Source of the DNA: Octopus vulgaris
Lineage: Eukaryota
DNA: 64,000 nt
Assembly (NCBI GenBank): GCA_951406725.2
Contig: OX597830.1
Coordinates: forward strand, 10,540,001-10,604,000
Direction: 5' to 3'
In this document: positions 2,441 to 47,198 of the stretch, one piece after another
How positions within the stretch are numbered: position 1 is the first letter of the stretch
How the letters are laid out: every line of letters begins with the position of its first letter
Notes under the pieces: model-generated
Databases searched by the model: none
What the model was told of the DNA's origin: nothing
Seen by the model: only the letters and a program-made list of their open reading frames with translations
Made by a program: the position numbers and the translations under genes

Positions 2441-4844
2441 TAAAATAAAAACTAATATCATTTGATTGAAATACCTCTATAATATAATGGTCGATATAAA
2501 TGTTGGCTGGTTTCTCCAGTTATACATCACCAGCTTAAAAGCCGTACTCTTTACGGATTTTGAACTAGCTCCTGTGGAGAGCTGCGGCCCAAAACTAAAG
2601 AAATATCATGACTGTAAAACATCTATAATGACTGTATGCCCCGGTTGTGTTTGATGAGAGGTTAAGGATGGATGAGAATTAATTCTGTAATGCAATCATT
2701 CTATTGTTCCAGTTCCGAATTGAATTCCAACTGTTGAACTATTTGTCCCAAAGTTCTTTCCTCGATATAAAATTAACGAAGCGAATATCATTTATCTCCC
2801 CCCGACATTCCTTGATCTCTGACATCATCTGACAAACGCCAACCAGAATGACGTGAATTAGCCAAGCTTTACCTGCTGGAAATGGCAGCCCAAATGCTTA
2901 TAAATCAGATCCTAACGCTGTATGTTCAAAAACCAAATGAAGGGCAAATTTTTTAAATCCTGGGATCATCCTGATTCCAAAAAGGTATAATATGTCTATG
3001 TAGAGCAAATGTAGACTGAGACACAGGGGTCCCGGACAGACAGAATTTCACTTTTATTATAAAAGATTTAGAAAGAGGTGAGAAGTAAATAAAAGCGATG
3101 CAGTGATATTCAACATGCAAGGCTTGGTGGCAAGCAATGCGTAGACGAACTACACACACACACACACATAGTGACAGAAAAGTCACAGGAGGAGGAGGAG
3201 GAGAGGGAATATGCTATTCGTTTTGACATTGTGTGTTAGTTTAACGCACATAAATGCTACATCAAATGACATTAGGATACTTACGCAGCAGAAACACGTG
3301 TTGGAGTGGAATCTAATGTGAACGTGACCCTCATGTTGATATTGCGCGTTAGATTAATATCTAAATCACCATACCCTAGGTTAATGACCCTATTTTAAAT
3401 AATCAGTTTTAGTTAATTCTTTTACAATACTTGTAGCTATGAAAATTATAATTCCAGTCTTTTAGCTCTGCAGGAATCTTTGAGAAAAGCATGAACATCA
3501 CAACACTTCATTTCTCTTTTCTCTAAATGAAAAGTGGAAATAAACTATATAAAGACTGTATTGTCAGCTGATTAAGATGGTTATTGACACCATGGACCTC
3601 TCGCCCTCTACTCCAAGAATGGCTTAATTACTTTAAAGCACTGTCCCTCATTTTGACATTGGCCATTCCTTAGAAATGAACTCTGTACACTAGGTTAGAG
3701 AAGTATCAGAGATACAACTCCATTTTTAATTATCAGTTGTAGCTAATTCTTTTAAAACGATAATGACCCTTTAGGAAACTATGAAAAATAATAATTCTAT
3801 TTCTTCGCTGTTTTACCAAGAAAATTGAGGAATCTTTGAGAAAAGCCTGAACATCACACAAACTCGCTTCACTTTTTATGAAATGAAACATAGAAATAAA
3901 GTAAATGGCGACGATATTTGAGAAGGTGCTGGATTGGAATCTTCCTCTGGTGTTTCGTTAAACGCTTAATTCTTTATGTCTCAGCTCAGCTGGCTGTTGG
4001 GAATAGATAAGAAAAGATCATCTGGGAATGTTAACTAAGATATAAAGATATCGCAATCAGGAAAGATTTATCTCTCTTCTTCCACTTAACGCCATGAAAT
4101 TGGAACTCAACACAATCATTTAAAACGTTTCAGGGATTTAGAAAATATTTTTTATCTTACTTTATTTCCTAACTCTGCGATGCCGTATCTTTGTTTCAAA
4201 ATCGATTTTCCCAGTTCTTGGCTTCAGCAATTTTTTTTTCCTCATAGCTTAACTTCAGAATTCACGAAACTGAGATTTGTGTAAAACGTTTAAATAATCC
4301 ATCAGAAAACAAAGCTGTTTTATTTAATATCATTATTCCGCAGCTGAAGGGTGGCTGGGTAGCAAAATCGTTTGGCAAAGAAGAATTGCCTTGCAGTATT
4401 TCTTCTGGCTGTTTGTGTTCTGAGTTCAAAATCCGTCAAAATCAACTTTTATTTCATTACTCTCGTTGATAAAGTAAACACCGCGGTCGACTTGCCTTTC
4501 CTCCCTCCAGGGTCGATAATATATAATACCAGTCAAGTAATAGCACTGATGGTAGCCACTAGCCTCTCCCCTTAAAATCGTTGACTTTGTGTCTAAATTA
4601 GAAACCACAATCTCGTTACTGATGGGCGGTGAGTTGGCAAAATCATTAGATCATAGGAAGGAAAAGGTACTTCGTGGTGTTTCTTCCGACTCTTTACGTT
4701 CTGAGTTCAAAATTTGTCGAGGTCAGCTTTTCATTTCATCCTTTTAGGGTCGATAAAATAAAGCACCAGCCAAGTACTAGAGACAATGGTATCGACTTAC
4801 ATCCCACTTCAAAATTACCGATAAACCTCCTCGTTATTATTATC

Positions 4845-5330
4845 ATTGTTTTTTTTTCTTCTTTCTTCAAATTTTCTTCCATATTTCACCGAGTGTTTTC
4901 CGTACACCTAGGGCAGAGAAGCTCATTGTATGCATTCCCAGATTAAACACGCAAATTCACAGGTAAAATATGTATAAAACAAAATTAATAAATTCATGAC
5001 TGGATGTTGTTTCCACAGCGATAATGCTCTTCTCAGTACATGATTTGTTCCAGTTAACACGATTTTTGCACTTCCTGTAGGGATGGTAAGCCTGGTATCA
5101 TTTTAAATAGGTTTCAGTACCTTTTTTTTATCATTCCTAGAGATCCTATAATCACTGGTACTGTAGTCGCCTTGAGATACCACATTTTTTCAATTTCTAT
5201 TAGCAAGTCTTTATATTTACTGATCTTGTCACATTCTTTCGCCGCTATATTGTGATCGCAAGGAATACTCATGTCAATTAATAAATACACCTTTTTTTGT
5301 CTAATCTTTTATAATAATATCTGGTTTATT
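4845..5330 (-). mobile_element. R4/Dong-type LINE 3' fragment
   Basis: Minus strand NKPDIIIKD...IDMSIPCDHNIAAKECDKISKYKDLLIEIEKMWYLKATTVPVIIGSLG...LTGTNHVLRRAL; flanked by TTA-type repeats. Confidence 0.85.
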
Positions 5331-38470: not shown

Positions 38471-38666
38471 CATTTCCGACATTTGTAGGTTTCAGAAAAA
38501 TATCGAACACTTTTCAAAGATGCCAGGTCTAAAGGCATCACTTCGACTTTGGCTATTGGCCTCTCATCAAGAATCTTCTGACATGCTTCATTAGCAGACT
38601 CCACGTTGCGGCAAGCTAATATTACGAAGGCACCATGTAAAGCCAGAGAACGCGCTGTTTCAAAAC
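38471..38666 (-). CDS. WWOX: WWOX internal exon (196 nt), start of SDR domain; equals human coding exons 5+6 fused
   Basis: Translates (G)[64 protein letters not shown](W), matching human [21 protein letters not shown]...LDLA. Acceptor tttttcAG at 38667-38668, donor GTaaa at 38469-38470, phases 1/2. Confidence 0.96.
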
Positions 38667-45302: not shown

Positions 45303-45749
45303 TTAGATTTGATGACCTGATCTTATGCATGTCATTACAGGCTGACCAGGCCATACCCTTTCTAGTTATCAAAGAAGCTTGAGAGGCGGTTGGATGGAAC
45401 CTACACTCGCCTCCTTATGAGAGCTCAAAATCTCTCGTGGAAGCGTCATCCAACCAAAATGCAAATACATGGGAAACTACCACCTGTGTCATCTCTTGTG
45501 AAAGGTAGGAGAGTCCAGTTTGCTGGACATTGTTGTAGAGCTGAAAATGAGGTAATTTCTACTCTTCTCCTCTGGAAGCCATCTACTCGCAATACCAGAG
45601 GGCGCACACTCTCCTACCCTGATGTAATCTCCAGGGATACAGGCATCCAGCAACAGGACCTCCGTAATGCCATGATGGATCGTGAAATCTGGCGTCGCAT
45701 GGTAAATTCCATTGTCTCGACCACCGTCGAACAATGATGATGATGATGA
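45303..45749 (+). mobile_element. 5'-truncated RTE-like LINE with inverted 5' segment, (TGA)n tail and TSD
   Basis: Plus 45366-45737 LSKKLERRLDGTYTRLLMRAQNLSWKRHP...FAGHCCR; minus 45370-45303 ITRKGMAWSACNDMHKIRSSNL. TSD tgtcacc(t/c)tttc at 45291-45302 and 45750-45761. Confidence 0.85.
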
Positions 45750-46100
45750 TGTCACCCTTTCAACTAACTGACAAACAGATGAAAGTTCACCATTCCTTTC
45801 ATCTTTCTAGAATTTTTCCATTTAGATAATTCTTAAAATGTTTCATAAAGGTAACACAACCATTAAATAATGGTAGACATATATCAGGTATGGGTAATGT
45901 ATGCTCATTAAGGTGGTGTAACGAGATGACATGATCTCTCTGCATAACTGCCATCATAACAGAAGCAATTCTTCATAAGTTTGTGCTAAGAGACTGTGGT
46001 ATTTTCATTTGTTTGCAATATTTTATAATCAATAATAATTATTGGGTCTAGCTGACTTATGCTTGTCTGGCCCCTGAGTCTACAACACCCATTATATACA

Positions 46101-46361
46101 CCGGCCTTGCATCGAAAGGGAATTGGGTTAATATTCCCGAACTCAGAGAGCACCTGTCCGGTGGCAGGAATGTGGCGTGCTCCTAGCAGCACGTCCGTCA
46201 TCGAAGCCAGCAACCGGGCAAAGCAGCAGCAGTGCAAGTGAGCCCGGAGACATTACCGGGAGCCCCGAGAAGAGTTCTCTCTTCTTCGTAAAGGACCACG
46301 TCCGTGGAATAGGCTTGTTTGGAGATACCGATATAGTGCCTGTAGAGCGCTGCGTCAGGTT
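46101..46361 (+). pseudogene. 28S (LSU) rRNA fragment, tailless retrocopy with 10-bp TSD
   Basis: Conserved LSU blocks CGAAAGGGAATTGGGTTAATATTCCCGAAC (from 46113) and CCCGGAGAC...GGGAGCCCCGAGAAGAGTTCTCTCTTCTTCGTAAAGG. Flanked by attatataca at 46091-46100 and 46362-46371. Confidence 0.88.
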
Positions 46362-46907
46362 ATTATATACAGGGCAAGTTTTTGATACATCTTAAAATAT
46401 AGAAAGCACACCTTAAACACCATTAAATAAGGTGTATTCAAACTTGAGATCTCATCTGGAGTCTTGCAATGGAGAAGACTGCCAGCATGGGTTTGAAGTG
46501 ACTTCTTGAGGCACTGATCCTTAACCACAGATCCTCTTCTAGTTGTCAGCCCTTGCTTCAAACTTTCAAATGGCAAACTATTCAATGATAAGATATGTTT
46601 TCAATTTCTTTATGACAGGCATCAACATTGATAGTGCCACAAAGTTATGAAGGACTACACTATCCAATGTGCCCTTCTTTTTTTAAAAAAGGATAGTGTT
46701 GTTTGAAAGAAATTTACCTGTTACTTCTTGCATGATGAGCACTGGCTGACCTCAATGAAGGATTGAGCAAGAGGACTGAGATAACTGAGTTGATTAAGTT
46801 ACAGACCAATAATAGCGTGGCCAGTAGCTCATGTCCTATCCACAGCTCCATGCTGGTTTTATTTCCATGGGACCTAATGCTCAATGGTTCCATATGTACC
46901 TAGTTTG

Positions 46908-47198
46908 TCATAGGTACCTCAGAGTGGTACCAATGTTAGCACAAACTGCAAAGTGAAATCAATGACTAATTTATTTGGTTTACACAACAGAGATCCGTTT
47001 CTTGAATAAATTACTCAAACTGGATTGATGAGTGTGCAAAGAACCAGCTCATAGGTACCTCAGAGTGGTACCCTTCACCAATGTTAGCACAAACTGCAAG
47101 GTGAAATCAATAACTAATTTATTGGTTTACACTACAGAGATCTGTTTCTTGAATAAATTACTCAAACTGGATTGATGAGTGTGCAAAGTACCAGCTCA
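46908..47198. repeat. Tandem duplication of ~141-147 bp
   Basis: tcataggtacctcagagtggtacc...gtgtgcaaag.accagc occurs twice (46908, 47049), with tca microhomology at the junctions. Confidence 0.9.

Follow-up and report, generated by a model that had tools for sequence, protein, structure and literature searches.

A Tailless 28S rRNA Copy Beside the Hidden-Break Landmark and 3'-End Peaks of Dispersed rRNA Copies in an Octopus Genome

Dispersed copies of rRNA in the genome of Octopus vulgaris showed three peaks of 3' ends, located on the alpha side of the hidden break, at helix 88, and at the end of 28S, and showed no peak of 5' ends at the start of 28S-beta. One of these copies lies in the window analyzed here, a stretch of 64,000 nucleotides (G000:C17:10540001-10604000; the genome searched was G000). 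The overall reading that we consider fairly probable is that this insert is a dead, tailless 28S copy with target-derived duplications, likely made by a LINE, and that it is one of many copies whose 3'-end peaks likely reflect the capture of free rRNA 3' ends.

Anatomy of the Insertion

Positions in 28S were numbered on the 4890-nt LSU of the genome's own rDNA unit, placed by Rfam on locus L031; the rDNA array of this genome is on contig C20, with a unit spacing of ~18.3 kb. Alignment to this LSU identified the plus-strand segment 46101..46356 of the window as a decayed 28S rRNA fragment corresponding to nt 2109-2373, with 84% identity. The fragment is flanked by a 10-bp target-site duplication, ATTATATACA, the left copy of which (46091..46100) is host-repeat sequence and the right copy of which (46362..46371) matches it at 10/10 positions. 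The 261 bases between the two copies consist of the 256-bp 28S piece and five extra bases, AGGTT (46357..46361, plus strand), which have no rDNA counterpart and are likely non-templated. The 3' end of the insert is thus inside the source RNA, at nt 2373, followed by the five extra bases and the duplication, and no poly(A), oligo(A), microsatellite, or repeat tail was found there. These results bore out the initial annotation, which had described a tailless 28S piece between perfect 10-bp duplications. The conserved CGAAAGGG motif, the marker given in PMC6925239 for the 3' side of the D7a hidden-break spacer, occupies 46113..46131 (plus strand) and starts 12 nt after insert base 46101, the distance originally noted. 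The 5' junction coincides with the hidden-break landmark as claimed: it abuts the 3' side of the D7a spacer, by which the protostome hidden break is bracketed in that study (Natsidis 2019).

Compared with the genome's rDNA, the insert carries 33 substitutions, of which 27 are G>A or C>T; because 21 of the 33 are CpG transitions, we considered the window copy to be old and decaying. Rfam, applied to the whole window at its gathering score, did not report the fragment, and the best match to the insert elsewhere was 85%. The insertion host is an old dispersed repeat, the left part of which (45760..46100) shows 68-75% identity to paralogues, and the right part of which (46362..46429) is contiguous with the left part in those paralogues. 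In five of the nine paralogues examined, the left flank continues into the right flank and a similar word occurs once, and an exact repeat of at least 10 nt arose by chance at such junctions in only 32 of 200,000 local shuffles. Thus, on the basis of the single word joining the flanks and the low shuffle chance, we concluded that the duplication is target-derived. As for whether rDNA similarity runs through the duplications, a point raised at the outset, the left copy does partly resemble the rDNA upstream of nt 2109, yet the paralogues with a single word mark it as host sequence; decayed rDNA was therefore rejected as its source, and the partial resemblance may reflect 5' microhomology or be coincidental.

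The insert had been attributed to a LINE reverse transcriptase that primed internally on 28S. The first part of this proposal was retained, as a tailless, duplication-flanked copy fits LINE-type target-primed insertion; the second part was not, given the five unmatched bases and the junction itself, where we found no complementarity between target and RNA: the rDNA goes on with TCGGGCGG, a sequence that differs from the duplication. This speaks against internal priming in the case of the window copy. We propose that a LINE endonuclease would have made a 10-nt staggered cut, that the enzyme would then have added approximately five bases before starting on an rRNA fragment with its end near nt 2373, and that copying would have halted at nt 2109, where either the RNA ended or ordinary truncation occurred. 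The copy is solo, with no retroelement fused 3' of the rRNA piece within the duplication, and the other rRNA loci examined end at positions different from its own. The shared query start of the matches had raised a new SINE family as a candidate, which was discarded when the matches were resolved into rDNA units, long orphan copies, and unrelated fragments. An orthologous empty-site search, in which four contig runs were compared with 45800-46800, returned short repeat matches only and no joint. Functionally the insertion is junk, a genuine but ordinary rRNA retrocopy. At L259/L393 (28S nt 3997-4200), which has a 10-bp duplication, seven extra bases at the 3' junction resemble the five of the window copy; this likeness may be chance or an enzyme signature.

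3' Ends of Dispersed rRNA Copies

The census was based on exact 16-mer searches, which favor young copies, with every match in the genome listed; array units were set aside, copy ends were mapped by BLAST chains to the rDNA unit, and matches under 30 nt were dropped. The anchor on the alpha side of the hidden break gave 41 matches, 6 from the array and 35 examined, one of which was dropped as being of chance length (n = 34). Twenty-two of the 34 copies end at nt 2055-2078. With windows chosen after seeing the data and a few segmental duplicates kept, this count within a 52-nt window exceeded both that of the single neutral control anchor (22/34 vs. 9/29, P = 0.011) and that of three pooled anchors (22/34 vs. 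15/83, P = 2e-6). The D7a spacer, the AU-richest 40-mer of this 28S, differs strongly between copies, so that alpha ends scored at 2063-2067 may lie up to ~20 nt further. Fourteen spacer variants that diverge widely in both length and sequence survive in copies that read through (28S nt 2065-2100; L077, L126, L132, L140, L142, L143, L146, L302, L308, L310, L327, and others) and constitute a time series of this fast-evolving spacer.

The helix-88 anchor (4013-4028) gave 62 matches, 7 of them in the array (n = 55). Twenty-three of the 55 copies end within the 10 nt at 4059-4068, compared with four in the preceding 30 nt and four at 4069-4090; with a second helix-88 anchor, 17/40 end at 4064-4082. 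The peak is not an alignment edge, because 8 of the 23 copies are 98-100% identical to rDNA while their flanks look unrelated. The genome's LSU contains TATG/CGTC at nt 4081-4088, described in the accessible sections of PMC13321053 as a break motif conserved in incirrate octopuses; the supplement of that paper, which gives the 3' RACE method, reports the helix-88 break in both egg and sperm. The published cut corresponds to 4084/4085 in our numbering, and the peak at 4059-4068 lies 16-25 nt before it, which probably means either that trimming had shortened the captured RNA or that the enzyme entered it within the A-rich part of its freed tail. We are evenly balanced on the proposition that germ-line DNA amounts to a dated fossil record of rRNA cleavage, with 28S copies marking both the hidden break and the break in helix 88, which is confined to octopuses, and indicating a further, unreported end near nt 4065 produced by trimming. 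As a separate observation, copies L195, L253, L360, and L361 (28S nt 4063-4082) are without three helix-88 internal-loop bases of the present rDNA; they carry an older form of this region, close to where the octopus-specific break occurs.

At the 28S 3' end, the anchor gave 44 matches (7 array, 1 dropped; n = 36), and 16 of the 36 copies end at 4882-4891. The best 15 nt of the three pooled comparison anchors held 11/83 ends, and the 3'-end peaks differed from this pool at P = 3e-7, 1e-4, and 6e-4. The 18S 3' end (37 matches, 7 array, 2 dropped; n = 28) showed a weak peak, with 4/28 ends at -3..0 and P = 0.20 for the best window. The peaks are one-sided, with no matching pile-up of 5' ends at helix 88. 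Many copies run across RNA ends into the spacers, indicating that precursor RNA or rDNA was also a source. Tile searches with 98, 45, 60, 184, and 94 candidates, each with 40 matches scored, were kept outside the statistics.

We propose that the 3'-end peaks likely arose because reverse transcriptases capture free rRNA 3' ends. In this form, the initial suggestion that insertions record cleavage positions holds better for 3' ends, which peak at breaks, than for 5' ends, which are not enriched. A competing explanation, which we regard as unlikely, attributes the peaks to internal priming on intact rRNA, at single-stranded loops rich in A, of which the break regions would simply be the most exposed. 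Indeed, the alpha and helix-88 peaks both precede A-rich stretches, the helix-88 peak is ~20 nt from the mapped cut, and minor clusters occur away from known breaks (5/29 at 2549-2553 and 4/32 at 4196-4204), both of which precede A-containing stretches, as internal priming predicts; in human, according to the part of PMC5322556 at hand, truncation was seen at single-stranded regions with no truncated-RNA intermediates. However, the two strongest internal peaks coincide with the two known break regions and are as large as the one at the true 3' terminus of 28S, only 4/30 helix-88 junctions continue with AA, and the fusions to SINE heads described below fit jumping onto ends. RNA folds of the two regions were no better than those of shuffles (D7a, z -1.2; helix 88, z -0.1).

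SINE-Like Fusions, Duplications, and Target Loss

We scanned 179 short copies for the head of a SINE-like repeat within 30 nt. A head in sense orientation was present in 13 of the 72 copies ending at an RNA end or break, compared with 1 of the 107 others, and none was antisense. By site, the fusions amounted to 8/16 at the 28S end, 2/22 on the alpha side, 2/30 at helix 88, and 1/4 at the 18S end (L527, L533, L535, L539, L541, L545, L582, L585, L361, L376, L281, L368, and L487). The partner is one abundant SINE-like repeat of ~230 nt, and ARAGORN predicted no tRNA in any of five loci with the SINE-like head. Both helix-88 fusions share ~10 nt with the head; thus, homology may have helped these two. 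At L361 and L535, duplications of 19 and 14 nt, respectively, surround the whole fusion of rRNA and SINE-like repeat. Such fusions in sense, together with the duplications around whole fusions, fit a LINE enzyme that, on completing one template, jumps to the free 3' end of an rRNA. Such template jumping is established for R2.

Duplications of at least 11 nt within 1 kb were found in 13/179 copies (null, 42/5000) and in 6/72 of the end-terminated copies. Empty sites could be rebuilt from paralogous repeats in 16/174 cases, of which 12 had lost target bases and 4 had duplications; a near-duplication scan (6/174) excluded AT-rich words, among them that of the window copy, which is one of the minority of copies that bear duplications. 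The scarcity of duplications (13/179) and the loss of target bases (12/16) fit the patching of DNA breaks. We therefore envisage three routes in the population that would share the same RNA ends: direct target-primed copying, which would account for a minority of copies, with duplications; a jump to the 3' end of an rRNA once a SINE template has been completed; and the patching of DNA breaks, in which target bases are lost.

A more radical view would make the insert and most other copies rDNA captured as DNA at breaks, the 10-bp repeat and its position being incidental. The copies that cross RNA ends into spacers could be read in this way, as could the facts that most copies are without duplications and many are in target deletions. 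Nevertheless, the window duplication is target-derived and improbable by chance, and the combination of one-sided peaks at RNA 3' ends with sense-only SINE fusions requires an RNA stage; we therefore consider capture of rDNA very improbable as a general explanation and retain RNA intermediates, presumably handled by a LINE-type enzyme, in the preferred reading.

5' Ends and the Start of the Window Copy

The initial annotation had further proposed that the reverse transcriptase ran off the processed 5' end of mature 28S-beta, so that base 46101 would mark the cleavage within a few bases, and had named a pile-up of 28S fragment 5' ends at this position as a test. The beta-side anchor, just 3' of the hidden-break spacer, gave 33 matches (7 array, 26 examined, 4 dropped; n = 22), and the control anchor at nt 2513-2528 gave 36 (7 array; n = 29). 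Within 52 nt upstream of the beta-side anchor, only 3/22 copies start, at 2100, 2109 (the window copy), and 2111, compared with 6/29 in the same span at the control (P = 0.71, with small numbers); without the window copy, the count was 2/21 (P = 0.44). The predicted pile-up was thus absent, and 19/22 beta-side copies read through the spacer, both of which weigh against the run-off. At other mature 5' ends, only 2/14 copies start at the 28S 5' end, and, although 21/40 copies align from -6..+8 at the 18S start (51 matches, 9 array, 2 dropped; n = 40), this control is inflated, because about half of them appear to continue into variant spacer sequence.

Several observations nevertheless favor a run-off for the window copy. 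Its 5' junction at nt 2109 is at the spacer edge, the copy starting at 2100 is 99% identical to rDNA and another starts at 2111, and 5' microhomology could account for the resemblance between the left duplication and the rDNA upstream. Enzymes also seem to run off mature 5' ends elsewhere, as judged from the 18S start and from one copy that starts exactly at 4085. This copy was found with the anchor downstream of helix 88 (42 matches, 7 array, 3 dropped; n = 32), for which no 5' end was located at 4066, 1/32 at exactly 4085, and 4/32 in 4081-4096. Three internal copies with duplications (L259, L400, and L424) read through the helix-88 break, which indicates that uncleaved RNA was a real template. 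The portion of PMC4671170 available gives no base-level 28S-beta start, and none of four cephalopod genus names occurs in the text supplements of PMC6925239. On this evidence the run-off is a serious possibility that falls a little short of even, and we lean slightly toward ordinary truncation, of a precursor or of a fragment, as the cause of the start at nt 2109; the position of the insert start beside the hidden break may be chance.

Relation to Known Systems

Therian tailless retropseudogenes, for which human examples include ten 5'-truncated 28S and two 18S copies in the available text of PMC5322556 (Noll et al. 2015), resemble the window copy in having no oligo(A) tail, a duplication (8-35 nt), and a 3'-truncated structural RNA. 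They differ in that the final 2-18 nt of their RNA are complementary to the target, in place of which the window copy has five extra bases, and that study favored internal priming; in addition, the host here is a mollusc and the end peaks coincide with known rRNA breaks. Mobilization of the class is ascribed to a relaxed L1-type element, and the window copy has no partner element attached. In primates, chimeric insertions of 28S rRNA with LINE-1 and of tRNA halves with LINE-1 have been described (bioRxiv 10.1101/2025.02.02.635956, as far as its text was available); these carry rRNA pieces of ~270 nt fused in sense to the 5' end of the retroelement, as do the fusions of this genome, and their tRNA breakpoints resemble nuclease cleavage sites. 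By contrast, the window copy is solo, the partner in this genome is a SINE-like repeat, and the junctions are at rRNA 3' ends and breaks; a chimera inside one duplication is a feature of L361 and L535 that is absent from the window copy. SINE28 likewise comprises dispersed LSU-derived copies, including the 3' end (Longo et al. 2015, PMC4994717, in part), whereas the window copy is tailless, derives from the middle of 28S, and does not share its ends with other copies. Because the ends of other copies differ, the window copy is not a member of an amplifying family.

The hidden break (PMC6925239), which is also mentioned for octopus RNA in the part of PMC9547907 available, and the octopus helix-88 break (PMC13321053) occupy the same positions of the molecule as the 3'-end peaks. 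In the portions of PMC6925239 and PMC13321053 available, the breaks were mapped from RNA, whereas the signal here comes from genomic insertions only. In the literature searched, a set with few subscription journals, we found no study in which rRNA breaks were deduced from copies in the genome, and the word 'pseudogene' is absent from the main text of PMC13321053 as available. Tailless 28S copies, 28S/LINE-1 chimeras, and SINE28 are already known; what is noteworthy is the genome-wide 3'-end pattern, including the helix-88 peak.

If our reading is true, a genome assembly would suffice to find ribosomal breaks, locate them, and estimate their age from histograms of copy ends, and the origin of the helix-88 break within cephalopods could be dated. 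This would provide a DNA-only test of rRNA breaks for lineages in which RNA is scarce, such as deep-sea cirrate octopuses, and an independent line of evidence for the helix-88 break recently reported in the germ line. Because any given break is present in some species and absent from others, a comparison between them would also decide directly whether tailless retrocopies come from free-end capture or from internal priming; the 3'-end pattern is directly testable across cephalopods.

Gene Context and Neighboring Sequences

The insert had been placed in a WWOX intron. Exons of an SDR gene that resembles WWOX are present on the minus strand below 38.7 kb of the window, the insert being antisense to this gene, and the nearest exon begins at a splice acceptor near 38666. 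Pfam adh_short matched one of three SDR exons tested. In the 145 kb above 38.7 kb (the window and the next 120 kb), no upstream SDR exons were found by motif, and a WW-domain search gave no match on this contig. An antisense intronic position of the insert is likely.

Upstream of the insertion, a remnant reading frame (45366-45752, plus strand) with a short trinucleotide tail at its end has no Pfam match and resembles the 3' end of a LINE; a gap of ~340 bp separates it from the insertion, to which it does not belong. Downstream, 46908-47198 is a tandem duplication with a period of ~147 bp, unrelated to the insertion.

Elsewhere in the genome, many long rDNA copies stop or start at 28S nt 3337-3370 beside several different foreign sequences (L003, L011-L014, L016, L017, L021, and L024; L156, L164, L170, L171, L173, L176, and L184); one of these is in the C20 array and the others are dispersed. 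We take nt 3337-3370 to be the R2 target site, and the pattern suggests that there are several R2-type families and that rDNA orphans moved with them.
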